IMG/VR virus record: IMGVR_UViG_3300028486_000080 | Coordinates: 80,199-144,198 of that record | Length of the DNA: 64,000 bases | Strand: one strand, 5' to 3' | Origin: a virus | Lineage: Duplodnaviria; Heunggongvirae; Uroviricota; Caudoviricetes | Part shown: in pieces, positions 1,534 to 45,120 of the stretch | How the letters are laid out: every line of letters begins with the position of its first letter | Numbering within the stretch: position 1 is the first letter of the stretch | The notes under the pieces: generated by a model | Databases searched by the model: none | Seen by the model: the letters and a program-made list of their open reading frames with translations, nothing else | What the model was told of the DNA's origin: nothing | Made by a program: the position numbers and the translations under genes

Positions 1534-1598
1534 GTTCGACTCCTTTGTTCTCTCGACTTCAGGCACCCTAGCACAAAGGTACTAACAGACCGTTAAAG
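1534..1598 (-). promoter_or_regulatory. conserved early promoter/5'UTR/RBS element, copy 2
   Basis: CTTTAACGGTCTGTTAGTACCTTTGTGCTAGGGTGCCTGAAGTCGAGAGAACAAAGGAGTCGAACATG on the minus strand. Confidence 0.6.
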
Positions 1599-1901
1599 CC
1601 TCTCCATCAAATCATCATCGCCTTGCACGATCACCACGTCTCCCACGAGCACATCGCTCACCATGTGCCCGCCACCAGTCGCCCATGCGAGCGTTGCGAC
1701 ACGATTGATTGGAAGCCCGTTAAGTTTCCCCTCTTCATTACAAAACGCGACGCATCCCTTGTCACCGAAGTTCTCGAATAGCGGCACCAATTCAATGTAG
1801 CCGCCGACGATCTCTTGCAACTCTTCGAGCGTCGGTGCCTTAGTCAGCAGACGCGTCTCGGCAGAGCCGTCAGCACGAATGACTGTCAATGTTCCGTTCA
1901 T
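1593..1901 (-). CDS. DUF3846-like protein (paralog of 4387..4767)
   Basis: 102 aa; EEGKLNGLPINRVATLAW ... GDVVIVQGDDD pattern resembles DUF3846; shares the GLP.N..AT motif with ORF 4387..4767. Confidence 0.45.
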   Translation of the reverse strand: MNGTLTVIRADGSAETRLLTKAPTLEELQEIVGGYIELVPLFENFGDKGCVAFCNEEGKLNGLPINRVATLAWATGGGHMVSDVLVGDVVIVQGDDDLMERL

Positions 1902-3988: not shown

Positions 3989-4386
3989 TCGTTGAGTCTC
4001 CTGCTATGGTAAGGTTACGTGTCGCTAGTTCCTTTTCAGAAAACGGCGGCGGTAACCTTAGGTTCCTATACGATCAAGAATTTTTTCGTCTTGTTACGAA
4101 CGTGAATATAACACAGAGGTCTTAACAAAGTGTTAACACGATAGCGTGACCTACCATAATTTTTGGTAGGGTTACCTGATAATCAATCATTAGGGTTAAC
4201 AAGAAGACGGCTAACGATAGGTTAACCATATAACCCATCGTTAGAAGGCGCTTTGCCCTACACACACAAATTGCCGCCCATCCCAGGTGTAGACCAGCAC
4301 CCGGTTTAAGCCATATTCCGCGGTCACCGCCGCGATCTCTTGCTCAGGCATACAGGCGAACGCCCGCATGATTGTCAGGAAGGGAC

Positions 4387-4767
4387 TCAGAACCACACCC
4401 GACGCATAAAGAGCACCGCAGTCCCCGCAATGAAGTTGAGCATTTCCGGGTCCGCCACCGGGGGCGCCGAACTTCGCCCGGCAAGGTTAGCCGCGCGATA
4501 GATGGCAGTCGCGGTCTCATTGCGCGGCAGCCCGTCCAGCAGTCCAGTCTCATCCACAAACATATCGAGCGCGCGTCTGTTAAAAAGCACGCTCACATGT
4601 TCCAAACGCTTGCCGTCAAGATGCGGCTCGATAATGGTCCGTAGCAGATCGTAACCCGGCTCTCGTGGTAGCTCTCGCACCTCGACCGCAGACTCTTCAA
4701 ACGTCTGTCCTGGCTTGATGATGTGGTAGGTTGTCAGGATAACCGGCTTTGTCTTTAGCTCTGCCAT
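4387..4767 (-). CDS. DUF3846-like protein
   Basis: 126 aa; VSVLFNRRALDMFVDETGLLDGLPRNETATAIYR pattern typical of DUF3846. Confidence 0.45.
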   Translation of the reverse strand: MAELKTKPVILTTYHIIKPGQTFEESAVEVRELPREPGYDLLRTIIEPHLDGKRLEHVSVLFNRRALDMFVDETGLLDGLPRNETATAIYRAANLAGRSSAPPVADPEMLNFIAGTAVLFMRRVWF

Positions 4768-5012
4768 TAGATCGACACCCTCGCAGGTCGTTGGAACGAT
4801 ACAGATTTGCAGCCAGCCTTTTCGCGTATCTTTTCAGCGACGTGTACCATCGTCGATCCTTGATCGAAGACAAACGCCTCAGCACCACATATCCACATAG
4901 GGCGTCCGTCAAACATCCATATTTCGCCTATGACTAGATAGTCATCCGCTACCACGTGGTATCGCCCTTGTCCAGGCTCGTATCCTCGCAAATCTTTCTT
5001 CAACTCAGCCAT
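4767..5012 (-). CDS. hypothetical protein
   Basis: 81 aa ORF, ATGA overlap with downstream gene. Confidence 0.4.
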   Translation of the reverse strand: MAELKKDLRGYEPGQGRYHVVADDYLVIGEIWMFDGRPMWICGAEAFVFDQGSTMVHVAEKIREKAGCKSVSFQRPARVSI

Positions 5013-5019
5013 CGGCTAC

Positions 5020-6369
5020 TCACTTTGAAAGATAGATGTCTGAAATTTTCAGGGCGATGTCGCGAAACGCTTGACGCAATTGTGCGTCATCCGCGGCGTC
5101 ATACTTCATCGTGGCATCGGTAGCGCATTGAGATAGGGTCTCTTTCGCGGTGTAGTCGTCAAGCTTGAACCCTATCGTAAAAACATCAATGCCGTCTGCT
5201 TTCATCCGCTTGCAAATCTCCCGTGCTTGAGTCGCGGATGAACCGTTAGCCGCCGAGCACTTCCCCTTCAGATCGTCGGTGCGGTTTGATGTCTTATCCG
5301 CCGCACCGCTGGAGCAATGTTGGATATTATACTCTCCGTCTGTCATGAGCACCGCCACTTTGCGCACGCTCTTTTTCGACGGGTCATAAGCTTGAGGGCG
5401 CGCGTTGCTCGGGAAGCGCGCCGCCCAGTTAGGAGACAGCGCATAGTATGCCCATGCCGTGCCTATATGACCAGCCGTAGAGCCCGACGCCTTCAGATTG
5501 TCGATAGCATCCATGATCATTTGCTTGTCAGAAGACAGCGGAATGAAAACCGAAGCAGGTTCACACTTACCATCATAGGTGTATGGGCGCATTGGGTAGC
5601 CGTTCGCAGATGATGGCGGCGCATCGGTGTATGCTTGCGAGCCCGTGCGCTCCACTACGCAATAGCTTGTGCGCCGCCAATCCCGCGTCTTGCCGTTGTT
5701 CTGTTGGATGGACTTGGTAGCCGCCGCAGTCGGAGCACCGCTCATGATAGTAGAGAAGCGAGAACCCAGGTTGACCGACTCCGAGAACGGGATGATAGCG
5801 GCTTTTGAAGTCACATCGGATTGATTTTCATCGACTACGACGTTGATCAAATCCTTGGCGGCATCTTTCATTGCATCAAGCTTCGAGCACGGCGAGCACA
5901 TAGAGCCCGTTACGTCCAGCATGAGCGCCACCTCAAGATTGCCGCCAGTCTTGCCGCCCTTGCGCACTTGCGAGCGAGCGGCAACGTTGATGTCCAACTT
6001 TTCCACATGCACGATAGGTAGGAACATGGTTTTGACGATAGAGTGCTCGACTCCATCTAGCACCTTGGCTCCGTCCTGCTCAACCACTGTGAACTTGGCA
6101 GATGGCTCGCCTTGCACCCAGGGACGATTCTTCACGTTGGCGAGGTAAATCTGGCGTGCAGCTTCCGTAGCCGTCGCGAAGCTATCCGGGTTGACTTGAA
6201 GTGACCGCGCACCAGCGAGCACAGCAGCGTCAATCGCGCTTTGCGTTTGGCTTTTAGCGTGATACCAGCGCCCAACGTCAAGTGCGCCGCCAACGCACGC
6301 CACCATTATAGGCAACGAAAAGGCGAACATGACTGCAACGTTACCCCGGTCATCACGAAAAAAGCGCAT
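5020..6369 (-). CDS. TadE/TadG-like pseudopilin N-terminus fused to von Willebrand factor A domain
   Basis: N-term MRFFRDDRGNVAVMFAFSLPIMVACVGGALDVGRWYHAKSQTQSAIDAAVLAGARSL matches the TadE-like (Flp pilus assembly) domain; vWA signature ALMLDVTGSM plus MIDAS-like residues; embedded in the phage early operon. Confidence 0.65.
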   Translation of the reverse strand: MRFFRDDRGNVAVMFAFSLPIMVACVGGALDVGRWYHAKSQTQSAIDAAVLAGARSLQVNPDSFATATEAARQIYLANVKNRPWVQGEPSAKFTVVEQDGAKVLDGVEHSIVKTMFLPIVHVEKLDINVAARSQVRKGGKTGGNLEVALMLDVTGSMCSPCSKLDAMKDAAKDLINVVVDENQSDVTSKAAIIPFSESVNLGSRFSTIMSGAPTAAATKSIQQNNGKTRDWRRTSYCVVERTGSQAYTDAPPSSANGYPMRPYTYDGKCEPASVFIPLSSDKQMIMDAIDNLKASGSTAGHIGTAWAYYALSPNWAARFPSNARPQAYDPSKKSVRKVAVLMTDGEYNIQHCSSGAADKTSNRTDDLKGKCSAANGSSATQAREICKRMKADGIDVFTIGFKLDDYTAKETLSQCATDATMKYDAADDAQLRQAFRDIALKISDIYLSK

Positions 6370-6379
6370 CGACTCCTCC

Positions 6380-6568
6380 CTAGTTGATCGTAAAAATTAC
6401 CACACCCTTTTCGAGTAACGTTGCGACAGCAGATTCCACCGCCACCACATCACACTCAGGGGCATCCTTGGGCAGGTACACTGTTAGGGTGCGCCGCCCA
6501 ACGGTCCCGCCGACCACCGGTTGCTCACCGATGATTCGACGGGAAACCATGAGGGGATGATCGCTCAC
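6380..6568 (-). CDS. hypothetical small protein
   Basis: 62 aa ORF overlapping the upstream gene by 4 nt. Confidence 0.35.
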   Translation of the reverse strand: MSDHPLMVSRRIIGEQPVVGGTVGRRTLTVYLPKDAPECDVVAVESAVATLLEKGVVIFTIN

Positions 6569-6894
6569 CGCTGATAGTCCTGAATGCGGGTTGTCCGCAT
6601 ACCGGGGCGCCCATGCTTATCGAGAAGTGTAGACCAGTTGCGGAATTCTTCATCGCTGATGGACCAGCGAGTGAGCGCTTCCTGCAACGTGATCAGTCCA
6701 CCACGAACGGCGAGCACCACTTCAGCCTTGCGGCGGGTCACCCAGCGCGTGGTATTGGATGGCGGCAGATCAGCAGCGCTAAGAGGCTCGCCCTCCGGTC
6801 CAACTACATAGCGGGGCGCCGCTTTGCGTCCAGGCACAGCAAGTGCCTTTGCTTTTGGCTTGGTCATATAATCCTTTCCATGCGTTGACTTCAC
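6565..6894 (-). CDS. DUF1153-like helix-turn-helix protein
   Basis: RWVTRRKAEVVLAVRGGLITLQEALTRWSISDEEFRNW...GLR pattern typical of DUF1153 (alphaproteobacterial HTH family). Confidence 0.5.
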   Translation of the reverse strand: MKSTHGKDYMTKPKAKALAVPGRKAAPRYVVGPEGEPLSAADLPPSNTTRWVTRRKAEVVLAVRGGLITLQEALTRWSISDEEFRNWSTLLDKHGRPGMRTTRIQDYQR

Positions 6895-6932
6895 TATGAA
6901 AAGGAGGCTAGCACAAAATAGTTAAAGGAAAG

Positions 6933-7286
6933 TTAACGACGCCCCCCATGAATAAGAAATAGCCCCCCAGACCCTAAAGGCTTGGCACGCACAGGAGGCA
7001 CTAACTTAACCTCTTGCTTGCGCGTGTTCTCGTCCGACTTCAGGCGATTGAATAGCTTGCAATAGGCGCTTGCCTCAGCTTCGAGCCTAGGCAAATCGGC
7101 AGGGGTATCTGCGACCCATATTTCCAACACTTGCGCGGGGCGAAACGGGCGGGGATGGATAAGCTGGTAGCCCCAACATTTTCCCTTAACCAAAAACCGG
7201 CGCACCTCAGCAGGAAACATTGCCACCTCACATATGGAAAAGACCCTAGGCGTATACACGCCTAGGGCTAGTTTGGCACTCCCCAT
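6933..7286 (-). CDS. hypothetical protein
   Basis: 117 aa ORF. Confidence 0.4.
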   Translation of the reverse strand: MGSAKLALGVYTPRVFSICEVAMFPAEVRRFLVKGKCWGYQLIHPRPFRPAQVLEIWVADTPADLPRLEAEASAYCKLFNRLKSDENTRKQEVKLVPPVRAKPLGSGGLFLIHGGRR

Positions 7287-7911: not shown

Positions 7912-7972
7912 GTTCGACTCCTTTTTGTCTCGACTTCAAGCACCCTAGCACAAAGGTACTAACAAATCGTTA
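7912..7972 (-). promoter_or_regulatory. conserved early promoter/5'UTR/RBS element, copy 5
   Basis: ...GATTTGTTAGTACCTTTGTGCTAGGGTGCTTGAAGTCGAGACAAAAAGGAGTCGAACATG; overlaps the stop of the upstream gene. Confidence 0.55.
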
Positions 7973-8145
7973 CTCAGCTTCGATTGCCTTAATGCGTTCA
8001 CGGAGGCATTTTGCGCCTTCGTGCTTGCCCTCTTTCTCTAGCAGTTGCGCGGCTTGCTCGTATAGCTTGACAGCCTTATGGGGGATGCCCCGACGATAGT
8101 ATTCGTCGGCTTCCATTTGCAGCAGGATAGAAGGGGCGTGCATTG
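7970..8145 (-). CDS. small TPR-like helical protein
   Basis: ORF 7970..8227 trimmed to the ATG after the conserved RBS (cat 8143-8145); helical repeat-like YYRRGIPHKAVKLYEQAAQLLEKEGKHEGA. Confidence 0.4.
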
Positions 8146-8200: not shown

Positions 8201-8454
8201 TGTTTGCGGCTCGTCATGCTGCACCAACGAGGCTACGGCTACGCTATGAACCTAGCTTTCATCAGTCGTGGCGCCTTACGCATCGAAAGAATTCTCGATC
8301 CCGCTTTCCCGTTCGCTACCCCTAAGGGTCCAAATTAGGCGCTAGCCCTATGGATCAACTCGCTACTAGGTATGTGCCGCCGAGCTTCGCGTCTCGCTTT
8401 TCCCGTGCCTTTCGCCTTGTGGCTTCACTCTTCTGACTACACAAAACTAGCATG

Positions 8455-8600
8455 GGCGGGTTAACAAACTCTTAACGCGCCGGGCGCAGTGTCATTAACC
8501 TTAACGTTTAACCAGTTTACGACCTGTTAACCCTAATGCACGTTAACTGCGCCTGTTAACTTGATGTTAACCTGGGATGTGTTACGTTCAGGGCAATCGC
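8455..8600. repeat. cluster of six GTTAAC/TTAAC(C/G) motifs
   Basis: gttaacaaactcttaacg...cattaaccttaacgtttaacc...ctgttaaccctaatgcacgttaactgcgcctgttaacttgatgttaacc. Confidence 0.5.
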
Positions 8601-8810: not shown

Positions 8811-9383
8811 TCACGAGCCGAAAACCTCACGAGCCCAAAAAATTGACTGCACCATCGACATGCCGTGTCCCCGTGGGACAAATACTATGTTGGTTTTGTT
8901 GCTTTTTCTGAGGTTGTCTTCAGCGAGCATGGGTTGCAGGTTCCAGGGTACATGCAGTCCAGAGCGATCTTCACCCTTCAACGGTTCGATGTGATCTACG
9001 TGCCATTTCTGCCCGGTCGATAATTCTAGCTTACGTGCTAGCGCGAATACATCCTCGATAGCCCGCAGCATTTCGGGGTTGTCGAGCACCCATTTAGGTG
9101 TTGCATTGAGCAACATTGCTCGCGTTTTTGCTCCTTGAGCCCGCGTCTTGTGGCGATTGTTCTCAGCCCACTGCCGCGCGATCTCCCGCAGGCGATCATA
9201 GTTCTTATCACGGTATTTTGCATCATATGCCGCACGACGGTGGGGATGCTTCTTGCGGAATGCTATCGCATAGGCGGTATGACACACCTTGCACTTGGAC
9301 AGGCGTTTGTCTCGCGTATCGGGGCGATGGTGGAAGTCAGTGAGCGGCTTAATCTCGCCGCATGCTTTGCATTGCTTTGTCAT
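8811..9383 (-). CDS. HNH endonuclease
   Basis: N-terminal Cys4 zinc ribbon (CKACGE...CKVCH) and C-terminal HVDHIEPL...NLQPMLAEDNLRKSNK HNH motif. Confidence 0.75.
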   Translation of the reverse strand: MTKQCKACGEIKPLTDFHHRPDTRDKRLSKCKVCHTAYAIAFRKKHPHRRAAYDAKYRDKNYDRLREIARQWAENNRHKTRAQGAKTRAMLLNATPKWVLDNPEMLRAIEDVFALARKLELSTGQKWHVDHIEPLKGEDRSGLHVPWNLQPMLAEDNLRKSNKTNIVFVPRGHGMSMVQSIFWAREVFGS

Positions 9384-10908: not shown

Positions 10909-11000
10909 TGATCAAGACGCGAGGTAGCCCGCGTTAACGGTATGTTAATCTTTTACATGTAGACCAAGGGAGAGTATGTAGCACGAGCCGGGGAGTTTTG

Positions 11001-11969
11001 ATGATTGTAAGCGCTGACACGATCCGTAACTTCCGTATGAAAGTTGATGTCGCCCTTGAGTCTCACCACTCATGGGTGAACATCTTTCTTATGACGTTGG
11101 TTATCGCCAACGTGTCCGCGTTCGCCCTCGCGACCGAGCCTGCTGTCCACGACCGCTACTTCACGGTGATCCTTTGGTTTGAGCTTGTCTCTCTCGCGAT
11201 CTTCTCCGTCGAGTATGTGGCGCGCATCTGGGCGCATCCTCAGCCTCGCTGGCGCTTTGCGCTGGAGCCGATGCAGATCATCGACTTCCTGTCTATCGTC
11301 CCGGCAGCTATCGCCCTCACGGTTGGGCATATCGATCTGGGCATCCTCTTCCTGCTACGCCTGATTCGTTTCATCAAGATCGTGCGCTATTCGCAGGGCG
11401 TCGGCTTGCTTTGGGCAGTGATCAAGCAGGAGCGTTCGGCGCTGTTCTCCTCTACGCTGATCATGTTCGGGCTTGCCGTTGTGACGGCGACGGTGATGTA
11501 TTTTCTTGAGCGCGACGCGCAGCCCGACAAGTTCGGATCGGTAGTGCAGGCGATGTGGTGGAGCTTCACCACGCTTGGTACTATTGGCTACGGCGATGTC
11601 GTGCCAGTGACGGTCGCAGGCAAGATCGCTACATGTGTGATGATGATAATCGGCGTCGGCACTTTTGCCATCCCCTTCGCGCTGATCGCGTCGGGCTTCA
11701 CAGCGCAGTTCTCTTTCACGCCCTCGCCGGTCACGGTACCTATCCCGGTTTCCGTCCCCGCAAACACGCTTGTCAACGTGCGCTATGCTGATCACGTTGC
11801 CGAGTTCGCACGACCAAACGGAGAGTCAGACGGCATCAACCTGATCCACCTCGAAGACCCGGTGATCGCGCGTGTGATCACTGATCTGTTGAACGGATCG
11901 GCAGCCGTGAATTTCAACGAGACCACGAAGACGTGGATCATAACGGAGGAACCGAATGCGATTGTTTAA
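11001..11969 (+). CDS. voltage-gated potassium channel homologue (6TM Kv-type)
   Basis: S4 voltage sensor LLRLIRFIKIVRY (basic residue every third position); pore helix plus selectivity filter WWSFTTLGTIGYGDVVP; S1-S6 hydrophobic segments; GGGAG RBS 5 nt upstream of ATG 11001. Confidence 0.85.
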   Translation: MIVSADTIRNFRMKVDVALESHHSWVNIFLMTLVIANVSAFALATEPAVHDRYFTVILWFELVSLAIFSVEYVARIWAHPQPRWRFALEPMQIIDFLSIVPAAIALTVGHIDLGILFLLRLIRFIKIVRYSQGVGLLWAVIKQERSALFSSTLIMFGLAVVTATVMYFLERDAQPDKFGSVVQAMWWSFTTLGTIGYGDVVPVTVAGKIATCVMMIIGVGTFAIPFALIASGFTAQFSFTPSPVTVPIPVSVPANTLVNVRYADHVAEFARPNGESDGINLIHLEDPVIARVITDLLNGSAAVNFNETTKTWIITEEPNAIV

Positions 11970-37922: not shown

Positions 37923-37999
37923 TGGCACTAGCGAGTGGGTTCGAACCACTGTATCCCGATCCACAATCGAGCGCTCTCACCCATTGAGCTACGCTAGCA
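37923..37999 (-). tRNA. tRNA-His(GTG)
   Basis: minus-strand cloverleaf: acceptor gctagcg/cgctagt, anticodon arm ctcga-ttGTGga-tcggg, T-arm agtgg-gttcgaa-ccact, encoded CCA. Confidence 0.6.
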
Positions 38000-38001
38000 T
38001 T

Positions 38002-38085
38002 ATTGGTGCTCCAGGAGGGACTCGAACCCCCACGCCTAGGCACGTGGTCCTAAGCCACGCGTGTCTACCGTTTCACCACTGGAGC
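38002..38085 (-). tRNA. tRNA-Leu(TAG)
   Basis: acceptor gctccag pairs with ctggagc; anticodon loop cttagga; long variable arm; T-loop ttcgagt. Confidence 0.55.
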
Positions 38086-38087
38086 GG

Positions 38088-38161
38088 TGCCCTACCCCGG
38101 GCTCGAACCGGGAAAACTCGAATTTTAAGTCCGATACGTATACCAATTCCGTCAGTAGGGC
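38088..38161 (-). tRNA. tRNA, anticodon loop cttaaaa (TAA) in a short-variable-arm body
   Basis: acceptor gccctac/gtagggc, T-arm cccgg-ttcgagc-ccggg; class I length but a Leu-type anticodon, so identity is uncertain. Confidence 0.4.
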
Positions 38162-38185
38162 TGTTAGATTGTTACACTTTCTTAA

Positions 38186-38270
38186 TGGTGCGCCCGGTAG
38201 GACTTGAACCTACACGCCTTGCGACATTCCCTTTTGAGGAGAACGCGTCTACCAATTTCGCCACGAACGC
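38186..38270 (-). tRNA. tRNA-Leu(CAA)
   Basis: acceptor gcgttcg/cgggcgc (two G-U), D-loop aattggtaga, anticodon arm ttctc-ctCAAaa-gggaa, long variable arm, T-arm gtagg-ttcaagt-cctac, CCA encoded. Confidence 0.55.
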
Positions 38271-38271
38271 A

Positions 38272-38349
38272 TGGTGCCGATAGGAGGACTCGAACCTCCA
38301 TTTGCCCAGACTCTCGATCTGGTGCGTCTACCAATTTCGCCATATCGGC
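38272..38349 (-). tRNA. tRNA, anticodon unassigned (GAG-like loop with C33)
   Basis: acceptor gccgata/tatcggc, T-arm ggagg-ttcgagt-cctcc; anticodon stem-loop ambiguous. Confidence 0.4.
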
Positions 38350-38361
38350 TTTTGTAAGTTT

Positions 38362-38448
38362 TGGAGGACCGAGTGAGATTCGAACTCACGTTGGGCTTTC
38401 GCCTTCCGATTAAAAGTCGGGTGCCATCGTCCGCTCGGCCACCGGTCC
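38362..38448 (-). tRNA. tRNA, class II (Ser-like D-arm), anticodon unclear
   Basis: D-arm tggccgagcgg resembles tRNA-Ser; T-arm gtgag-ttcgaat-ctcac; anticodon loop reads cttttaa. Confidence 0.45.
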
Positions 38449-38633
38449 TGAAGACCTAGCCGTCGAGCGGTTAGGTCAGTCGATGGACGAGCTTTTTAAG
38501 TCGTAAGGCATGCAACGACAATCGCGCGGCGTGTGCGCCAGCGATTAAATGTCGGAAGATGTTCGTTGCGTTTGTCATGACGGGATATATAAGGTATCTA
38601 TATGCGTATGTCAACAGGTAAAGGTAAATAAAA

Positions 38634-38918
38634 ATGTCTGCGAATATTGCTCTGCTACCGCTCTCCACTGATGAGATTTTCAAACTTGTCAGGCGGCAGA
38701 TCAAAGCCAAAAAGCTGAAAACCGCAACGCTATCCACGAGAGCCGGATGCTTCTATTTCTACCTGCGCCTCGACAAAGACACGACCATCACTGTTGCTAT
38801 GTATCTAGATGGGCGGATGTCGATGTCGTACACCTCCCGCCTCGCTGGCAAGGAGCATGTCATCTGGTTCAGCAAACAGGAGCGTCAGGCATTGGCGCCA
38901 TCGTTGGTGCAACTGTGA
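38634..38918 (+). CDS. hypothetical small protein between tRNA clusters
   Basis: 94 aa ORF; weak. Confidence 0.25.
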   Translation: MSANIALLPLSTDEIFKLVRRQIKAKKLKTATLSTRAGCFYFYLRLDKDTTITVAMYLDGRMSMSYTSRLAGKEHVIWFSKQERQALAPSLVQL

Positions 38919-39056
38919 AGAAGCTGTGGCGGTGGATCACGTCTTGGTGGCGACCGAAGCCGCAGTACACTCAGATTGAATGGCAGGTTGATCTCGTAGT
39001 CATATGCGGCAAAGGCGCGGCGCGCATCTGGGGCATCGAAACCTCCGAAGAGGAAG

Positions 39057-39130
39057 TGGAGCGAATGAAGGGAATCGAACCCTTGTAACCTGATTGGAAG
39101 TCAGGGACTCTACCATTGAGCTACATCCGC
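39057..39130 (-). tRNA. tRNA-Gly(TCC)
   Basis: anticodon arm cctga-ctTCCaa-tcagg; T-arm aaggg-ttcgatt-ccctt; acceptor gcggatg/cattcgc. Confidence 0.6.
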
Positions 39131-39499
39131 ATTGTCTCGTTACGCTCTAGTATCTCCATAAACTCTACCGCCTTGTCCCGCTTGATCCGTAGATAAGGGA
39201 TCAGTTGGGGCAGCAGCGCCAGCAAGTCCAACTGCTTCGTGACATGCCACGTCAGCATCGGCTTTCTGTTATCCGGCACCTTCTTGTTACGGACGCGACC
39301 GCAGCCCGTAATCTCTTGGCACCACTCTATACTCCCGAAGTGCGTGTTGTGCACTTGAAGGCACAGGGCTCGATATCTTTTTCCACCGCGACCAGTGACC
39401 GTGTGGATTGAGAAGTTTCCCTCACCGTCAATGTAACCGGCGATCCAAGCCGCGTCGGTCTTTCGGAGGCGCTTTACAGTGCAAGCTCTAAGTACACGA
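39121..39499 (-). CDS. LAGLIDADG homing endonuclease (single-motif type), start uncertain
   Basis: AWIAGYIDGEGNFSI LAGLIDADG motif; the 195-aa ORF in the track runs through two tRNA genes, and no in-frame ATG lies between the motif and the tRNA at 39507. Confidence 0.5.
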
Positions 39500-39506
39500 G
39501 CGATGG

Positions 39507-39580
39507 TGGTTCTCCTGCGAGGATTCGAACCTCGATCTTCAGCTTCAAAGACTGCTATCCTACCGTTAGACGAAAGGAGA
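39507..39580 (-). tRNA. tRNA, anticodon unassigned
   Basis: T-arm cgagg-attcgaa-cctcg on the minus strand with complementary acceptor ends. Confidence 0.4.
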
Positions 39581-39581
39581 G

Positions 39582-39655
39582 TGGTTCTCGAAGCCTGACT
39601 CGAACAAGCATTCACCGCTCCAGAGGCGGGTGTCCTACCATTAGACGATTCGAGA
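39582..39655 (-). tRNA. tRNA, possibly Gln(CTG)
   Basis: acceptor tctcgaa/ttcgaga; anticodon loop ctctgga with a 4-bp stem. Confidence 0.4.
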
Positions 39656-39663
39656 ATGGACGC

Positions 39664-39739
39664 TGGAGCATAAGGTGGGACTCGAACCCACAGCCTCTTC
39701 GTTGGCAACGAAGCGCTCTAACCCTTGAGCTACAAATGC
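39664..39739 (-). tRNA. tRNA-Gly(GCC) with U5-U68 and U6-U67 acceptor mismatches
   Basis: D-arm gctc-aagggtta-gagc, anticodon arm cttcg-ttGCCaa-cgaag, T-arm gtggg-ttcgagt-cccac, CCA encoded; acceptor gcatttg vs cttatgc. Confidence 0.5.
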
Positions 39740-39740
39740 G

Positions 39741-40067
39741 TTAGCGTTGTCGTCCAGTCCAGTAAGCGTCCATGTTCTCTAGTGCCATCCGCAGATGGCG
39801 CTCTCCTTCAGGGTTTGCCGAGTGGATATTCCACCGGTAGTGTTTGCCAAATCCGTTACGCGCCCAAAGTTCAAGCGTATCGGCTACGATCTGAGAAGTG
39901 TTGTCTCCTCCGAGATCGTGATCGAAGGAGATACGATAGATGTCATAGTCAGGGTTCAACAGCGCTTGTAGTGCTTCCTCCGCCGTGCGCGCGATGATCC
40001 AACGCACGTAGTTGCCGGTTGGCGGCATACGCTCATCATCGATCCACAAGGCGCAGTAGTAACCCAT
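39741..40067 (-). CDS. hypothetical protein
   Basis: 108 aa ORF between tRNA genes; family not identified. Confidence 0.4.
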   Translation of the reverse strand: MGYYCALWIDDERMPPTGNYVRWIIARTAEEALQALLNPDYDIYRISFDHDLGGDNTSQIVADTLELWARNGFGKHYRWNIHSANPEGERHLRMALENMDAYWTGRQR

Positions 40068-40080
40068 CGTCTAAATTCCC

Positions 40081-40160
40081 TGGCGAGCATACCGGGACTC
40101 GAACCCGGTTTTCAAGGTGGACAGCCAAGCGTAATAACCCATATACGATACGCCCCAAGC
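40081..40160 (-). tRNA. tRNA-like element (atypical, possibly pseudo-tRNA)
   Basis: T-arm ccggg-actcgaa-cccgg and CCA present but no consistent anticodon arm found. Confidence 0.25.
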
Positions 40161-40163
40161 CAA

Positions 40164-40238
40164 TGGAGCCGGATACAGGACTCGAACCCGTGCAGCCGCC
40201 TTACAAGAGCGGTGCTCTACCTGTTGAGCTAATCCGGC
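40164..40238 (-). tRNA. tRNA-Thr(TGT)
   Basis: acceptor gccggat/atccggc; anticodon arm ccgct-ctTGTaa-ggcgg; D-arm tagctcaacaggtagagc. Confidence 0.6.
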
Positions 40239-40415
40239 GATGTGTTTGGGAGGGGGCGCGCGAAACGCGACTTGTATGATTACAGGCTTGCGCCCTGCGC
40301 AACCATACGCGCGCCCCCGGTGGTATCGAGACCACCGAGAGTGTTTGTGCCTTGAAGGCGCGTATGTTGCAGCATTTTGATCATGAGGGCTATATAAACC
40401 CTAATGATCCCGATG

Positions 40416-41786
40416 TCAAGAGCTAAGTGCTGCATTTTTTCTAATAGTCGAAAAGCTCTCGGGGTAGCGCACATAAGGGGCTTCCCATAACACTTCGAAC
40501 TGATGATGCTGCTGGACTCCGCGCTTGGACTTCTTACCTTTGTCAGTCACCGGCTCTTTGAAAACATCGACAAGCTCGCCGTTGATATGCGCCGCTGACG
40601 CCTTCATCGCATACTTGAACGTATCGCGGTTGACCTTCTGAAGAAGCCCACCACCCATACCAAACGCGATGTTGTCGATGGACCATCCATTGTTCATGAG
40701 CACATCCATCATATCGACAATCGTATCCGGCTCCATGCCGTCGCCTTGAATGATACGCAGATAGGGTGGCAGAACTTTGTAGCCTTTGCCGTTGGTCGTG
40801 AAACCGAACCGCTGCGCGAGGCTTTCGAGCACAGCGAGCACCACTTCATTCGGACGCCCACTGTCGGGACGAATGACAAGCGTACCCCCGCGCGACATGA
40901 CCTCATGACGTAGGCGGTCGCCCCAAATGTTTGAGACGGCATTGTAGATATCGTAAGAGTCCGACACGACTGAGAACAACGCCCCAGGCTTGGAGAATTG
41001 CTCAATCATATTCCGGTAGGCATCAACTTCGCGGTTGCGTCCCCACGAGGTGATGGTGCTGTGTTCCGCGGCGGGTATGGAGAACCCAGGCATGTCGATA
41101 TCGGAGTATGCTGCATAGTACTTGTCGAAGGCTTCCAGCGCCTCCATTGTGTCGGTGCCTTGGAAGTTGATCAGATGTGCGAGCCCACCCAGACCAGCGC
41201 TTTCGCTAGAGGATGCCCCACGTGCTCCGAAGTCGTGGAGCTTGTAGTCCAGACCATGAAGCGTATCGCATGTTAGCGCCATGTAGCGCTGGATGCGTTT
41301 TTTGATCTCGCGTGAGACAGTTGCGACAGTGGATGGATACCAAATTGCGCGCAACAGCGCGGTCTCCACGAAGCTCGTCAGCCAAGGCAGGCGATCATCA
41401 GTGTTCACGACCTGAATTTGTGGCGTGCCGATAGGTACAGGCAAGCCGCTGGGGAGAGATTGAATACGCAGCGGCAAGAATCCGCCGTGTTTGGTGACGA
41501 TGTAAATCCAGTCTTCGAGGTTGAAAGGAACCCCATGACGACGACATATGTCGCTGGCACGCGCAACATCGTCAGCGGTGATGGGATTACGCAGATAGTC
41601 CAGCGCAAACTGCACCGCACCGAAATGAACGATTTCGACGGGTCCATATTTGTCTTGATCGAACCAGCGCTTGGCTTCATTGCTCAAGCCGCGCGCTTCG
41701 ATGTAGGACCACACCTTCGTAGTCCCTGGAGGGTATTGAAGGTAGTGGCTCATCTTGTAGCTGTCGGTATGAAGAATCGGGTTCAT
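40416..41786 (-). CDS. nadV: nicotinamide phosphoribosyltransferase (NadV/NAMPT)
   Basis: N-terminus MNPILHTDSYKMSHYLQYPPGTT is the NAMPT signature; 456 aa; adjacent NMNAT gene. Confidence 0.85.
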   Translation of the reverse strand: MNPILHTDSYKMSHYLQYPPGTTKVWSYIEARGLSNEAKRWFDQDKYGPVEIVHFGAVQFALDYLRNPITADDVARASDICRRHGVPFNLEDWIYIVTKHGGFLPLRIQSLPSGLPVPIGTPQIQVVNTDDRLPWLTSFVETALLRAIWYPSTVATVSREIKKRIQRYMALTCDTLHGLDYKLHDFGARGASSSESAGLGGLAHLINFQGTDTMEALEAFDKYYAAYSDIDMPGFSIPAAEHSTITSWGRNREVDAYRNMIEQFSKPGALFSVVSDSYDIYNAVSNIWGDRLRHEVMSRGGTLVIRPDSGRPNEVVLAVLESLAQRFGFTTNGKGYKVLPPYLRIIQGDGMEPDTIVDMMDVLMNNGWSIDNIAFGMGGGLLQKVNRDTFKYAMKASAAHINGELVDVFKEPVTDKGKKSKRGVQQHHQFEVLWEAPYVRYPESFSTIRKNAALSS

Positions 41787-42109
41787 TTTATAGCTCCTAA
41801 GAAGCTCTCAATGAATGGGATGATGTCCGCATCATGATCGACGTGCGGGCGAACTACTCTGATGAGCAGCGCAGCCTTTTTGAGGTAATCTTGCTGCGAA
41901 TGCTCTTGCCACGTAGGGACACCATTTTTGATGAAGTAGAACCAACCACATCCGTCCGTATGGTTCCACCGACACAAACGGTCGTGCAGCACGATAGCTA
42001 CTTGCTGATCTAGCGTCAGCGCTGTTAGATGCTTCTGTTCCTCGATGAGTTTCGCCTTCTCGGCTTCAAGCTCAGCGATCTTCTTATCGATGCTGGATAC
42101 ACTGTTCAT
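41783..42109 (-). CDS. hypothetical protein between nadV and nadM
   Basis: 108 aa, N-terminal coiled coil; ATGA overlaps on both sides. Confidence 0.45.
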   Translation of the reverse strand: MNSVSSIDKKIAELEAEKAKLIEEQKHLTALTLDQQVAIVLHDRLCRWNHTDGCGWFYFIKNGVPTWQEHSQQDYLKKAALLIRVVRPHVDHDADIIPFIESFLGAIK

Positions 42110-43125
42110 ATCCCCACCATCACTTCCAGGATTGCGTAATGATCTTCGAAGAGCATGTCACGGTTGCGGCGTATCTCATCGAATGGCTTCCAGAAAGCTC
42201 GCTTGGCGTCGTCTCCACCTTTGACCTTTGGTAGAGACTCGCGCTCTTCGAGCTTGAACAGATACGCCTCGGTAATCGTGCGCCCACGTTCTGAGCGCAT
42301 CGGATCATCGAACGTCAACTGCTTGGTGATTGACCCTTCTAGAACCCGATCAGGGACTTTGATCTTAGTCTCTTCCTTGAGTTCTCGGAGCACTGCCTGC
42401 TTCAGAGTCTCAGTCTGATTGACGAAACCTCCAGGCAATGCCCACAAACCCCGCCCTGGAGAGGATCGGCGCTGCACCAGGAGGATGTGACCTGACTGGA
42501 CCACTACGGCATCTACCGTCTGGAATGTGGGCTTGTACGGGGCGACCGACCACTCTTCCTTATAGTCCTTGATAACGCGGAATTCTTCACGTAGCCAGCC
42601 GACGACAGGTTCAGCCGCCTTTCGGAAGGCTATGAAGTGTGCGTCGTTTATGAAGTCCTCGCGATAGACGCCCACCTCAAGCCAACGCCCACGGAACATG
42701 GTGCCGCTGAAGTCAGCAACCTCCTGCACCTCGACGTAATCCCATTGCGGGAACTTATGGAGGTAGTAGGTGGTGTGATCCTTATCGAGTCCGACGATAC
42801 CGATCTTGATTGGATCGGCGCTGAACTTTTTGTGCGTGATCGAATGGACGACATCCTGAAGTGATGCCACCCAACGATCATCGTTGTAGGTGTGGTCGTG
42901 CTGTACACCGAAGTGGATGCGCGGATCATTCTCCGGGAAGCACGCCTTGATCATGGCGATTCGCTCCGCGCTGGAGAACGGATTTCGGGTAGATCGGGAT
43001 TTCTGATGGGAGCCCAGAACGAAGATCAGGTTCTTCGATTTCTTCAGGGCTTCGAGGGCAACGTGATGGTGCCCTTTATGGTAGGGCTGGAATCGCCCCA
43101 CGAAAACGAGGTAGTCGTATTCCAT
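42106..43125 (-). CDS. natV: bifunctional NMN adenylyltransferase / Nudix ADP-ribose pyrophosphatase (NadM-Nudix, NatV-like)
   Basis: (H/T)xGH nucleotidyltransferase motif FVGRFQPYHKGH; Nudix box GGFVNQTETLKQAVLRELKEETKI in C-terminal half. Confidence 0.85.
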   Translation of the reverse strand: MEYDYLVFVGRFQPYHKGHHHVALEALKKSKNLIFVLGSHQKSRSTRNPFSSAERIAMIKACFPENDPRIHFGVQHDHTYNDDRWVASLQDVVHSITHKKFSADPIKIGIVGLDKDHTTYYLHKFPQWDYVEVQEVADFSGTMFRGRWLEVGVYREDFINDAHFIAFRKAAEPVVGWLREEFRVIKDYKEEWSVAPYKPTFQTVDAVVVQSGHILLVQRRSSPGRGLWALPGGFVNQTETLKQAVLRELKEETKIKVPDRVLEGSITKQLTFDDPMRSERGRTITEAYLFKLEERESLPKVKGGDDAKRAFWKPFDEIRRNRDMLFEDHYAILEVMVGI

Positions 43126-43207
43126 AGATAGCTCCTATCTATGAGGGTGGAACCCTCCCGTCTATCGGGTGGGCATGTAGTCTAATGTAGTATATCTTCA
43201 GCGGATG

Positions 43208-43807
43208 TCAAGCCTTATCGCGTATTTCAGCGTAAGAATGATCTAGGCGCGCGGGGAACGCCTTATCGATCTCCTGTGTCGAGAGGTACACGTCGTAATA
43301 CACCGCCTCATAGCCAAAGGGGCGATACTGATTGACGCCTCGTGGTGCGATAATGCGTGAGTAGGCTTTCTCGCCTGAGCGCTTTACCTCACTTTCATAG
43401 CTGCCATAGTAGTCGCCTGCGAAGATGAATTCGTAGACATGATCCTGCCAGACGCAAGCCGGAACTTTCACAAGGTATTGAGGACCGAGCTTCATCGGGC
43501 GAGCCCATGCCGTGATCTCGCCAGCCTTTAGCGCATCCAATACATGCCGCACAGAGGCGAGAGGCGCGCGGCGCTCGATGAGATTCAGTGCGTCGAGCAG
43601 CTTAGTGTCTGGCAATGCGCCATCAACACCGTTGTCGTTCTTGCCGACATGAGCGAGCGGAGGAGGACTCTGGTAGGCGTCGAGCGGCGGGTTGACTAGC
43701 GGCTCTTGCCGCACAACACGTGAGACTTCAGCCAAGCGCTCCGGGTTGCGGAATACCTGCACTTCGGGTTCAGCCTTGAACAGTTTCCATAGAGCTTTGA
43801 ACATCAC
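43208..43807 (-). CDS. hypothetical protein
   Basis: 199 aa ORF. Confidence 0.45.
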   Translation of the reverse strand: MMFKALWKLFKAEPEVQVFRNPERLAEVSRVVRQEPLVNPPLDAYQSPPPLAHVGKNDNGVDGALPDTKLLDALNLIERRAPLASVRHVLDALKAGEITAWARPMKLGPQYLVKVPACVWQDHVYEFIFAGDYYGSYESEVKRSGEKAYSRIIAPRGVNQYRPFGYEAVYYDVYLSTQEIDKAFPARLDHSYAEIRDKA

Positions 43808-43880
43808 TCCACCTCATCAAATGGCGCCAGCACGCAGAACACGAGCACAGCGAGACACAGGACAATAATGATCTGATAGA

Positions 43881-44078
43881 TCATGAACGGCTGCGCTTTT
43901 TCTCGCGTTCCTCATCCGCTTCTAGCTTCCATTTAGGACAAGCGGCGCCCGTCTTGGGATTGATTTGCGAAGGCGTACCGAAACGTGTCCAGTGCGCGAT
44001 CTTGCGGGCGATGTAGTCGAGTTTAGGTTTGTCAGCCACGGTAGCGATCTCCACGAGAATGACCGATATATCGTCCAC
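43881..44078 (-). CDS. hypothetical small protein
   Basis: 65 aa ORF. Confidence 0.3.
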   Translation of the reverse strand: MDDISVILVEIATVADKPKLDYIARKIAHWTRFGTPSQINPKTGAACPKWKLEADEEREKKRSRS

Positions 44079-44253
44079 GAAGGGCTGAAATGACCGCCAG
44101 AACAGCCAAAATGACCGCGACGAGGGTATACAGCGGCGCTGAAGAGAGGGTGCTGAATGTCACCACTGAACCGATAGCGTTGCCGATGAGTAGCCAGCGC
44201 ATAGTTATCTCCTGTTGAGCCCTAGCATTAACGTAAATGATTAGGGTTGTCAA
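44032..44253 (-). CDS. small membrane protein
   Basis: 73 aa with two hydrophobic helices. Confidence 0.3.
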   Translation of the reverse strand: MTTLIIYVNARAQQEITMRWLLIGNAIGSVVTFSTLSSAPLYTLVAVILAVLAVISALRGRYIGHSRGDRYRG

Positions 44254-44298
44254 GCGCCAATATCACTACCATATTAGTGTTAACCATTGGAGGGTCAT

Positions 44299-44505
44299 AT
44301 GAAACTATTCATCGCTCTAGCAGTCACATTCTTACTAGCGTTCAGTGCTCAGGCGGCGCCTAAGCACCATTCGGGCGCATATAACCATCACGCGCATAAA
44401 CATCACGACGCTCGGCGCTGGCATCAGAACCGTTGGCGCCATCGGCATCATGGTCCGCGTCGCCCGCGTCCCTACTTCGTGTTCCCGTTCTACTTTGGCT
44501 GGTGA
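44299..44505 (+). CDS. secreted histidine-rich small protein
   Basis: GGAGGG RBS then ATG 44299; signal peptide MKLFIALAVTFLLAFSAQA; mature part HH..HKHHD..RRWH..RHRHHG. Confidence 0.45.
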   Translation: MKLFIALAVTFLLAFSAQAAPKHHSGAYNHHAHKHHDARRWHQNRWRHRHHGPRRPRPYFVFPFYFGW

Positions 44506-44528
44506 TACCTTGACACCCTTATCCTGAC

Positions 44529-44804
44529 TTGTTAAGGTTAAGGATGATCAAGATTAAAGCACAGCTATACGTGCAAGGTCGTGGCGTCGCGCGCGACCTT
44601 GCCGACATCACCATCTGGACAGAGATCGACAACGCCCATCACGGGTATCGGATCAGCTTGCCTGATGTCGAAATCAATGGACAGGTTAAGAAGCGGCGTA
44701 GCGCGCACCAGAATATTTTGCACGTCCTGCAAGAGGTGCTGGATAACGCGGACCTGAAAAAGCTTGGGGAGGACTACATCCCCAGAGGCGGCGTAATCAG
44801 GTAA
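44529..44804 (+). CDS. hypothetical small protein
   Basis: 91 aa ORF. Confidence 0.35.
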   Translation: MLRLRMIKIKAQLYVQGRGVARDLADITIWTEIDNAHHGYRISLPDVEINGQVKKRRSAHQNILHVLQEVLDNADLKKLGEDYIPRGGVIR

Positions 44805-44805
44805 T

Positions 44806-44879: not shown

Positions 44880-44885
44880 ATGTAG

Positions 44886-45107: not shown

Positions 45108-45120
45108 ATAATTCATAGTA

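Follow-up and report, generated by a model that had tools for sequence, protein, structure and literature searches.

The stretch of DNA analysed here (64,000 nucleotides, called the window in the following) belongs to a phage, as it encodes a terminase large subunit, a primase, a ribonucleotide reductase and tail proteins. It also carries 30 tRNAs and a tmRNA, and its primase is ~30% identical to the primases of Lacusarx, Erythrobacter and phiCbK-type phages. As the third gene of a minus-strand operon, this phage encodes a minor pilin of the CpaL/TadG type that ends in a von Willebrand A (vWA) domain. The operon and its borders are composed as follows:

7243..7268, minus strand: terminator-like hairpin (11 bp, 7 GC pairs), parting the operon from the upstream unit (promoter 7946-7973)
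6909..6936, minus strand: promoter-like element of the operon, with the perfect CtrA box TTAAC-N6-TTTAAC (TTAA-N7-TTAAC) at -35, followed by N9 and GCTA
6565..6867, minus strand: operon gene 1, homolog of the CtrA inhibitor SciP, 100 aa (NF051866, DUF1153)
6380..6568, minus strand: operon gene 2, 62-aa ORF with a 4-nt overlap with the SciP stop, kept in phage relatives
5020..6369, minus strand: minor pilin of the CpaL/TadG type carrying a vWA domain, 449 aa and stop codon (ORF, RBS, Pfam, AF2)
4767..5012, minus strand: operon gene 4, 81-aa ORF, not conserved in the sister phage
4387..4767, minus strand: operon gene 5, 126-aa ORF, kept in the sister phage
4211..4244, minus strand: terminator-like hairpin (stem of 14 bp) between the operon and the CtrA-box promoter that follows (4109-4136)

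The pilin gene starts with an ATG that is preceded by a ribosome binding site (GGGAGGAG-N4-ATG). A sequence-only reading of this DNA had placed the gene in a true phage, within an operon made up of small genes and preceded by a conserved promoter, and in this it was right. The flanking genes are also on the same strand, as it had stated, with spacers slightly different from the "4-8 bp" it gave (10 nt upstream, 6370-6379; 7 nt downstream, 5013-5019).

The first gene of the operon passes the NCBIfam equivalog NF051866 (115.9 bits, cut-off 100), matches Pfam DUF1153 (E 2.4e-35) and is 60-65% identical to bacterial SciP proteins. SciP of Caulobacter occupies promoters of flagellar, pilus-secretion (cpaB) and chemotaxis genes, and motility is lost when it is overexpressed (PMC4083442). 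Our literature search returned no paper on DUF1153 and none on a phage-encoded SciP. The 62-aa ORF has no family match and no homolog outside this phage type; within it, the ORF is 65% identical in the sister phage (contig L001), and a 66-aa ORF fills the same slot in contig L088. As for the two genes following the pilin gene, the 126-aa ORF is 58% identical in L001 and shows a weak match to DUF3846 (E 0.04, below the Pfam cut-off), and the 81-aa ORF gave neither a tblastn match in L001 nor a family match.

The order SciP, ~62-aa ORF, TadG-like gene was found in three diverged phage contigs (59-70% identity), and in all three the pilin gene is the third gene of the SciP-led operon, which follows a CtrA-box promoter. 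An identical protein is encoded on a 165 kb contig, and the exact protein is present in two independent assemblies (JGI and Logan). Between the phages, the pilin gene has diverged to the same degree as the neighbouring phage genes. Its dN/dS is ~0.15-0.28 and lowest in the MIDAS-bearing segment, with 0.06-0.28 for the vWA domain and 0.27-0.47 for the pilin head (aa 60-140), the fastest-evolving part among the phage copies; all of these values are rough because dS is saturated (1.1 to above 2.5). Further searches of phage and viral collections gave no relative: tblastn against 50,697 phage records found no match to the pilin protein at E<=1e-3, megablast of the region against phages found none, and PHROGs holds no family for the protein. 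IMG/VR was scanned once with the single protein and once with the alignment and yielded no viral relative either, a weak negative as both scans rest on a few exact peptide patterns, and the BFVD structures gave generic vWA matches, none of them with a pilin module. The clearly bacterial origin of the gene and its absence from the other phage records searched might suggest a functionless host-derived passenger or a mis-assembled bacterial fragment. Such an explanation is scarcely credible in view of the shared position in three diverged contigs, a dN/dS well below 1 even as a rough value, a divergence equal to that of the flanking genes, a phage-type promoter with a strong RBS, and the recovery of the exact protein from both assemblies. 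Our data show that the pilin gene is maintained by purifying selection in a lineage of large phages.

Pfam searches with the 449-aa protein matched two families of Tad pilus proteins at the N-terminus, namely Tad (PF13400; aa 9-55, E 3.4e-13, 50.1 bits against a gathering cut-off of 22.3) and TadE (PF07811; aa 9-49, E 8.6e-8, 32.6 bits against 22.9). The C-terminal part matched VWA (PF00092; aa 272-435, E 7.5e-10) and VWA_2 (aa 147-228), both above their gathering cut-offs. The profile check that the sequence-only reading had proposed (TadE and VWA) was thereby run, with both profiles exceeding their cut-offs, and the architecture it had described, a TadE/G-like N-terminus followed by a vWA domain, is confirmed by Pfam and by an AF2 model. 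The motifs it had quoted are present as well: GGALDVGRW...IDAAVLAGARSL spans aa 27-57, and LMLDVTGSM spans aa 149-157. Pilin families of the T4a or T2SS type gave no match at E<=1; with only Tad, TadE and vWA families matched, the sequence does not place the protein in the FimU/T4a minor pilin family.

In the confident AF2 model (pLDDT 88.9), a pilin "lollipop" precedes a vWA domain whose MIDAS is intact. The protein is divided into the following segments:

6343..6369, minus strand: short hydrophilic leader (aa 1-9, MRFFRDDRG) with Gly9 at its end as a putative prepilin-peptidase site (sequence, TadE profile)
6193..6342, minus strand: alpha-1 helix (aa 10-59), including the hydrophobic stretch VAVMFAFSLPIMVACVGGAL (AF2 helix 7-59, alignment A1)
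5950..6192, minus strand: globular pilin head (aa 60-140), with a helix at 64-79 and a beta-sheet at 92-139 (AF2)
5023..5949, minus strand: vWA domain (aa 141-449) (alignment A1, Pfam VWA, Foldseek)

Position 1 of the TadE profile falls on Gly9, and the corresponding family column holds G or A (alignment A1); Gly9 is the predicted point of cleavage by prepilin peptidase. At position +5 from this site, where Flp, TadE and TadF carry a glutamate, the phage protein has Met14, followed by a conserved Phe15 at +6 (G9|NVAVM14-F15, A1). The designation "TadE-like pseudopilin" that had been given to the protein does not hold. It is not a TadE/TadF pseudopilin because Met replaces Glu at +5; moreover, it is 449 aa long with a vWA domain, lies in no tad operon, and its bacterial relatives are orphan genes that likewise lack Glu at +5 (A1). 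Within the vWA domain, the MIDAS residues D152, T154, S156, T298 and D344 are invariant or nearly so among 43 homologs, and four cysteines (Cys237/269/386/415) are invariant across all of them (A1). The motif C161-S-P-C164 is specific to the phage proteins, and a beta-rich insert is located at ~aa 206-275. Conservation differs along the pilin module: the alpha-1 segment is 51% identical to bacterial homologs, and the head shows 24% identity between phage and bacteria versus 47% among bacteria. The best Foldseek matches of the model are the vWA pilus-tip adhesins SpaC, RrgA, Mfa5 and GBS104; a sequence search of the PDB with the 449-aa protein found distant vWA proteins only.

In genomic data we found 541 relatives of the phage protein, and the best 80 of these 541 come almost exclusively from Hyphomicrobiaceae. 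The nearest ones are stand-alone Hyphomicrobiaceae genes with 37-46% identity to the phage protein, and several paralogs occur per genome. A location of the bacterial homologs inside tad operons was rejected, as no Tad machinery was present among the 112 neighbours of 28 loci; recurrent neighbours are ahcY/PAS-kinase and HPr/EIIA genes. The next-best match (P0004) was considered as a gene of another phage and was dismissed as such, being adjoined by a bacterial HPr/ChvG context. The comparison of sequences shows orphan cpaL-like genes of Hyphomicrobiaceae-type bacteria to be the source of the phage gene. Judged from protein similarity alone, we infer that the host is a budding or stalked alphaproteobacterium.

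CpaL of C. crescentus (CCNA_00199; WP_010918088.1) is a Tad pilus protein that resembles minor pilins and has a vWA domain; its MIDAS consists of D160, T162, S164, T470 and D515, and its gene is an orphan outside the pilus cluster (PMC12607857). Deletion of cpaL results in partial resistance to phiCbK and in fewer and longer pili; it also stimulates holdfast production and surface sensing, and CpaL has been proposed as a mechanosensor (PMC12607857). The phage protein resembles CpaL in its signal or leader, its pilin-like module of ~120 aa and the D-x-T-x-S / T / D MIDAS of its vWA domain, and the bacterial homologs of the phage gene share the orphan locus. CpaL differs in its length of 626 aa, compared with 449 aa, and in having two tandem beta-rich domains where the vWA domain of the phage protein has only a short beta-rich insert, and only the phage gene is placed behind a CtrA-box promoter together with SciP. 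TadG of Aggregatibacter, Pseudomonas and Bradyrhizobium is also a large minor pilin with a PF13400 N-terminus and a modular C-terminal domain, and KilN of Myxococcus is a case related to TadG (PMC12075869). In a predicted tip complex with TadE and TadF, TadG would provide the backbone (PMC12075869). The classical tadG gene lies within the tad operon next to tadE and tadF, whereas the phage gene and its nearest relatives stand alone. The phage protein is, in our assignment, an orphan CpaL/TadG-type tip minor pilin, with CpaL itself compared by its published description.

A role unrelated to pili would require that the Tad-like N-terminus serves as a mere signal anchor of a periplasmic vWA protein, which would bind some other envelope or phage ligand (e.g. 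in envelope remodelling, defence or anti-defence, or virion assembly). The vWA domain is indeed a generic metal-dependent binding module found in many viral proteins, and the bacterial homologs, being orphans with several paralogs per genome, have a pilus role that is itself only putative. Nevertheless we consider this explanation improbable: the N-terminal module is modelled as a full pilin fold (alpha-1 and beta-sheet) and not just as a transmembrane helix, two Tad-family Pfam models are passed, CpaL as the best characterised relative in architecture has pilus phenotypes, and the gene lies far from the structural modules, with the tail genes at 54-64 kb.

The promoter-like element of the operon is located ~540 nt upstream of the pilin gene, with the SciP homolog and the 62-aa ORF in between. 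The pattern TTAA-N7-TTAR-N9-GCTA occurs seven times in the window, every time on the minus strand, versus 0.22 copies expected. Perfect TTAA-N7-TTAAC sites number six versus ~0.1 expected, all of them within 2.2-11 kb of the window, and predicted CtrA boxes are altogether ~30- to 90-fold enriched in the window. The sister phage L001 has the same promoter arrangement (GTTAACGGTTCGTTAAC) upstream of SciP. The "conserved early promoter" of the sequence-only reading is thus retained as a conserved promoter-like element but not as an early one: what it contains is a CtrA box, and expression of the operon is for that reason more likely timed by the host cell cycle. From its sequence, the operon promoter looks CtrA-dependent. 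That the box had been inherited together with the bacterial gene was rejected, with TTAA-N7-TTAA found in only 3 of 78 bacterial loci (<=400 nt upstream).

Pilus- and flagellum-tropic phages of alphaproteobacteria carry clustered CtrA sites as a signature, and promoters of this kind are activated by CtrA in phiCbK and Cp1R7A-A1 (PMC9437464). The "lytic deferment" regions described there consist, as in the present phage, of dense one-sided TTAA-N7-TTAAC clusters that form the promoters of small genes (PMC9437464). The signature is also shown by Lacusarx of the phiCbK cluster, to which the present phage is related. No function could be assigned to the CtrA-box genes in the repeats of the phiCbK cluster (PMC9437464), whereas SciP and a CpaL/TadG-like pilin are recognisable here. 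The CtrA-box clusters of phiCbK-related phages hereby gain two products whose function can be recognised, one a CtrA inhibitor and the other a pilus-tip pilin.

We tentatively favour, with a probability of roughly 40%, a scenario drawn by analogy, in which a phage tip pilin timed by CtrA engages the Tad machine of the host and alters the display or dynamics of the pili, probably as a means of receptor control. Host CtrA would switch on the operon in cells that build or carry polar pili and flagella. The phage pilin would enter the inner membrane by its N-terminal helix, where the host prepilin peptidase would probably cut it after Gly9, and would compete with the host CpaL-type protein for a priming complex of the TadE/TadF (CpaJ/CpaK) type. 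The pilus tip would be replaced or poisoned, and the number, the dynamics or the tip epitope of the pili would change. In parallel, phage SciP would silence CtrA-activated flagellar and pilus-secretion genes. The infected cell might then offer less putative pilus- or flagellum-dependent adsorption, with superinfection exclusion and protection of the progeny phage as the outcome.

A pilus-directed role of the phage pilin is plausible by analogy with P-FimU of Pseudomonas aeruginosa F10-like prophages, which is likewise a phage-borne copy of a host tip minor pilin (PMC12952977), and the SciP homolog and the CtrA-box promoters add supporting context. Other precedents are the phiCbK resistance and altered pili of the cpaL deletion (PMC12607857) and the dependence of pilus dynamics on the minor-to-major pilin ratio (PMC13249403). 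P-FimU is incorporated into the pilus, where it blocks tip-binding phages and supports normal pilus function (PMC12952977). The phage protein may share this mode, i.e. incorporation into the host pilus and exclusion of pilus-dependent phages, and the phage system would then be the Tad (type IVc) counterpart of prophage P-FimU. The two differ in that P-FimU belongs to the T4a pilus and is an unrelated, small and hypervariable pilin, expressed from a prophage and without an adhesin domain, whereas the phage gene is of the Tad/T4c type, has a conserved vWA domain, is coupled to SciP and CtrA, and resides in a large phage that, judged from the window, is apparently virulent. One finding speaks against the replacement of a tip epitope: conservation is highest in the exposed vWA domain and lowest in the pilin head, while in P-FimU it is the exposed, phage-contacted surface that is hypervariable. 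On the sequence data, a changed docking to minor pilins of the host would explain the divergent head no less well. Two further points run counter to receptor control. Among all ORFs of the window, a scan detected neither a TadE, TadF or Flp partner nor a further pilin-like gene, and if the pilus machinery is already repressed by SciP, removal of the receptor might not need a tip pilin.

Aqs1, Tip, Zip and PfsE are comparable to the proposed system as phage proteins that disable pili against pilus-dependent phages (PMC13436744, PMC8764522, bioRxiv 2024.03.05.583538). They differ from it in being small and cytoplasmic and in targeting PilB, PilZ or PilC, and they are not structural parts of the pilus. 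To our knowledge, no cytoplasmic phage inhibitor of this kind has been described for Tad pili. Structural pilus parts are a newly recognised anti-phage strategy of phages, so far represented by P-FimU in type IVa pili of Pseudomonas and by PilA-like proteins. If true, the scenario of receptor control by a phage tip pilin would carry this strategy over to the Tad (type IVc) class and bring in a tip protein with an adhesin or mechanosensor domain.

The intact family-invariant residues, MIDAS and assembly features, together with the purifying selection on the gene, would also suit a functional replacement, in which a working phage tip pilin or adhesin sustains or raises Tad pilus activity and adhesion during infection. 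It could offset a shut-off of the host, or let the infected cell stay attached close to susceptible cells. In line with this, P-FimU leaves pilus function normal, and pilus dynamics, which are governed by the proportion of minor to major pilins, increase in V. cholerae when minor pilins are overexpressed (PMC13249403). The co-transcribed SciP, however, should lower the expression of the pilus machinery and thus works against any boost, and the pilin head is strongly diverged from all bacterial homologs. We assign a low probability to this explanation.

The same engagement of the Tad machine as in receptor control could have been selected for a different outcome. By perturbing surface sensing through the Tad pilus, the phage pilin might, together with SciP, push an infected motile swarmer cell to attach and to differentiate into a replicating stalked or budding cell. 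"Lytic deferment" would thereby come to an end, and the infected cell would find itself among swarmer-producing hosts. We regard this explanation as possible, if on balance unlikely; superinfection exclusion on the one hand and manipulation of surface sensing and the cell cycle on the other are, as outcomes, comparably plausible. In Caulobacter, loss of CpaL turns on holdfast production and adhesion without a surface (PMC12607857). The operon partner SciP is a CtrA inhibitor, and both the operon and its neighbours have CtrA-box promoters. The lytic-deferment model moreover predicts phage genes that "accelerate the transition", and phiCbK has a GcrA homolog (PMC9437464). On the other side, the link between CpaL and sensing comes from deletion phenotypes in Caulobacter only and can be transferred to the phage by analogy at best, and SciP overexpression mainly silences the S-phase CtrA promoters and is not known to set off differentiation. 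A more specific version of this idea, which we think doubtful, describes the operon as a developmental module timed by CtrA, in which a decoy tip mechanosensor and a CtrA antagonist would make swarmers behave as if they had touched a surface, i.e. shed motility, attach and start replication. If this were true, it would provide the first functional content of the "lytic deferment" regions and a first example of bacterial surface sensing hijacked by a virus. A natural variant that evolved in a phage makes both the lytic-deferment hypothesis and the proposed role of CpaL as tip protein and sensor directly testable. The manipulation of surface sensing would also agree with the pattern of conservation in the protein, where conservation is strongest in the vWA domain with its MIDAS, the proposed sensor, in contrast to the diverged pilin head.

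The ORF at 5020..6369 (minus strand) encodes a protein of 449 aa; it begins with ATG, which a strong RBS precedes (GGGAGGAG-N4-ATG). Its N-terminus matches the Pfam families Tad (PF13400, aa 9-55, E 3.4e-13) and TadE-like (PF07811, aa 9-49), the remainder matches VWA and VWA_2, and all four domain matches exceed the Pfam gathering cut-offs. The sequence-only reading, which had described a TadE-type N-terminus followed by a vWA domain and suggested PF07811 and VWA profile searches, is borne out on both counts, and the sequence strings it quoted are present in the protein. A confident AlphaFold2 model (pLDDT 88.9, pTM 0.79; built on 43 homologs) comprises the following parts:

aa 7-59: alpha-1 helix, 53 residues
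aa 64-139: short helix and beta-sheet
aa 144-447: vWA domain

In the model the alpha-1 helix together with the short helix and beta-sheet forms a pilin "lollipop". The best Foldseek matches in the PDB are the vWA-containing pilus-tip adhesins SpaC, RrgA, Mfa5 and GBS104. Alignment of 43 homologs shows that the phage protein retains all family-invariant residues, including the MIDAS (D152, T154, S156, T298, D344) and four invariant cysteines (C237, C269, C386, C415), which probably form disulfides in the exported domain. A phage-specific Cys-Ser-Pro-Cys insertion (aa 161-164; window 5878-5889, minus strand) lies a few residues past the MIDAS D-x-T-x-S loop and is common to the window phage and its sister contig L001 (167.7 kb); most bacterial homologs have 'SG' at this site, and a few carry a longer two-Cys insert.

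The pseudopilin label that had been attached to the protein does not hold. In the N-terminus, MRFFRDDRG9|NVAVM14F15, Gly9 corresponds to position 1 of the TadE profile and position +5 is Met; Glu is likewise absent at +5 in the bacterial homologs. We take this profile position to be Glu in Flp, TadE and TadF (G/XXXXE[YF] motif). In type IV filaments, the minor pilin at the cap, e.g. GspK, characteristically lacks this Glu. Because +5 lacks Glu, and given the size and modular build of the protein, a TadE/TadF pseudopilin is ruled out and the protein is placed with large modular minor pilins such as TadG and CpaL; the family label is to be corrected to CpaL/TadG-type tip minor pilin.

An identical protein is encoded on a 165 kb contig, and relatives with 70% and 59% identity on a 2 kb contig (L088) and on L001, respectively. 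All remaining matches are bacterial, with at most 46% identity. Scanning 185,579 species genomes yielded 541 relatives, the best 80 of which belong almost exclusively to Hyphomicrobium, Filomicrobium and other Hyphomicrobiaceae; a single genome often encodes several paralogs. The phage gene is of bacterial origin. Its bacterial homologs are orphan genes: none of 112 neighbouring proteins (four inspected contigs plus 28 further loci) is a Tad ATPase, platform protein, secretin, Flp pilin or prepilin peptidase. A function of the phage protein outside pili is nevertheless improbable in our view. In the bacteria the gene recurrently lies between ahcY with a PAS histidine kinase and the HPr/EIIA/HprK/ChvG-ChvI genes; this slot is conserved at the bacterial loci L004, L006 and L089 and at about 11-14 of the 28 further ones, which hints at a regulatory link of the cpaL-like pilin to envelope or carbon signalling.

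Caulobacter cpaL is also an orphan outside the pilus cluster, and its product, matched here via its published description, likewise fuses a pilin-like module to a vWA domain with a MIDAS (D160/T162/S164/T470/D515) (PMC12607857). The published model places CpaL at the pilus tip together with CpaJ and CpaK, and its pilin head contacts the other minor pilins; cells deleted for cpaL are partially resistant to phiCbK, carry pili that are longer but less numerous, and show holdfast stimulation constitutively (PMC12607857). Among viruses we found no counterpart in the PHROG families, by tblastn against 50,697 phage records or in two pattern-based IMG/VR scans (a weakly sensitive method), no BFVD structure has both a pilin module and a vWA domain, and no further pilin-like gene occurs among all window ORFs. 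The gene would be the first structural component of Tad pili recorded from a phage, and it is linked with a phage SciP and with control by CtrA. It lies in an operon arranged as follows:

7268..7243: terminator-like hairpin before the operon promoter
6909-6936 (minus): CtrA-box promoter with a perfect box, after the hairpin and directly 5' of the first gene
6867..6565 (minus): SciP homolog, first gene
62-aa ORF, second gene, overlapping the SciP stop by 4 nt
5020..6369 (minus): TadG/CpaL-like gene, third gene
81-aa ORF, fourth gene, 3' of the TadG/CpaL-like gene
126-aa ORF, fifth gene, after the 81-aa ORF
4244..4211: hairpin closing the operon
4109-4136 (minus): next CtrA-box promoter

The flanking genes share the strand of the TadG/CpaL-like gene as previously noted, although the spacers measure 10 nt and 7 nt and not 4-8 bp. 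The SciP assignment of the first gene (6565-6867) is a strong one: it scores 115.9 bits against the NCBIfam equivalog NF051866 (cut-off 100) and shares 60-65% identity with bacterial SciP. Among 50,697 phage records, a SciP-like gene occurs in a single one, that of Erythrobacter phage XM05, where it is annotated as hypothetical. The "conserved early promoter" proposed before is indeed conserved, as an element of ~65 nt repeated on the minus strand; since its core is a CtrA box, "early" is to be read as CtrA-timed. TTAA-N7-TTAR-N9-GCTA occurs in seven copies (0.22 expected), all of them minus-strand and within 1.5-8.5 kb, and perfect TTAA-N7-TTAAC at six sites (about 0.1 expected):

1569-1596, 2239-2266, 2841-2868, 4109-4136, 6909-6936, 7946-7973, 8448-8475 (all minus): TTAA-N7-TTAR-N9-GCTA copies
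8555-8571, 10933-10948: further CtrA boxes

These promoters are followed by a conserved leader and the RBS GGAGTCGAACATG and drive a leftward block of small genes; in L001, GTTAACGGTTCGTTAAC stands in the corresponding promoter position upstream of the SciP gene. Two small DUF3846-like proteins are encoded in the block at 4387-4767 (minus; weak match, E 0.04) and 1593-1901 (minus; PF12957 in the precomputed annotation of contig L003). Bacterial cpaL-like homologs have CtrA boxes at only 3 of 78 loci; CtrA control was therefore added by the phage itself. The array agrees with the skewed clusters of promoter CtrA sites described as a signature of pilus-/flagellum-tropic alphaproteobacterial phages, including the phiCbK/Lacusarx/Cp1R7A-A1 cluster (Mascolo et al. 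2022, PMC9437464). Such promoters are activated by CtrA in phiCbK and Cp1R7A-A1, and none of the genes tied to CtrA sites in the repeat regions of the phiCbK cluster was given a function (PMC9437464). The CtrA box lies at -35 in most CtrA-activated promoters (PMC11264516).

The order SciP homolog, 61-66 aa ORF, TadG-like gene is the same in the window, L001 and L088.

Amino acid identity, window versus L001
TadG-like gene: 59%
SciP: 55%
62-aa ORF: 65%
126-aa ORF: 58%
187-aa ORF: 53%
terminase: 78%

These values indicate that the TadG-like gene diverged along with its phage neighbours. Its dN/dS (Nei-Gojobori; dS saturated) is 0.15-0.28 overall, lowest in the MIDAS-bearing segment (0.06-0.28) and highest in the pilin head (0.27-0.47). 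The gene is phage-owned and under purifying selection, and that it is a mere passenger is hardly credible.

Domain identities
vWA domain: phage versus bacteria 53%, among bacteria 61%, among phages 63-89%
pilin head (aa 60-140): phage versus bacteria 24%, among bacteria 47%, among phages 34-44%

Family, fold, intact MIDAS, assembly features, SciP operon partner and CtrA-box promoter are established for the gene, and we propose the following scenario. Expression of the operon would be CtrA-dependent, in cells building polar organelles; the TadG/CpaL-like protein would be inserted in the membrane and processed, and may compete for the TadE/F-type priming complex against a CpaL-type protein of the host; the pilus tip or pilus dynamics would change as a result. 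The benefit we tentatively favour, with a probability of about 40%, is receptor control, i.e. superinfection exclusion plus protection of progeny. It is favoured because of the parallel with prophage P-FimU, a phage-encoded component of T4a pili whose incorporation blocks phages that bind the pilus tip (PMC12952977), and because SciP should lower flagellar and pilus machinery at the same time. In Caulobacter, flagellar, pilus-secretion (cpaB) and chemotaxis genes have S-phase CtrA promoters to which SciP binds, and cells overexpressing SciP are non-motile (PMC4083442). Superinfection exclusion by the gene, as first suggested, is plausible; a functional boost of pili is unlikely. As the main rival, the phage CpaL variant and the CtrA antagonist may push infected swarmer cells into attachment and differentiation. 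CpaL loss turns on surface sensing and holdfast synthesis, and the lytic-deferment model anticipates such genes (PMC9437464). Because the vWA sensor domain is conserved and the docking head divergent, this hijack of development, or poisoning, fits at least as well as epitope replacement; overall we consider the hijack less likely than receptor control.

The window is a real phage, with genes for the terminase large subunit, primase, ribonucleotide reductase, thymidylate synthase, NAD-salvage enzymes and tail proteins. It also encodes 30 tRNAs and a permuted tmRNA. Nucleotide-level comparison with sequenced phages gave no match; the primase shares ~30% identity with its counterparts in Sphingobium phage Lacusarx, Erythrobacter phages and phiCbK-type Caulobacter phages. 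An HNH/endonuclease VII-type gene (8811-9383, minus; phrog_1035, E 2.6e-27) sits where the leftward CtrA-box block and a rightward block leading to the terminase diverge. The perfect CtrA box at 10933-10948 lies just 5' of a gene (10998-11969, plus), missing from L001, for a 6-TM voltage-gated-type K+ channel homolog (Pfam Ion_trans, 1.6e-30, and Ion_trans_2) whose selectivity filter reads TIGYGD and whose S4-like segment, LRLIRFIKIVR, is rich in Arg. In several clusters, 29 tRNA genes occupy 37923-53442 (minus). The tmRNA (50171-50546) is two-piece and of alphaproteobacterial type, with the tag ANDNSPMVEDFRIAA, and an NAD+ salvage pair, nicotinamide phosphoribosyltransferase and a cytidylyltransferase/Nudix (NadR/NMNAT-like) protein, sits among the tRNA clusters (40416-41786 and 42106-43125, both minus).
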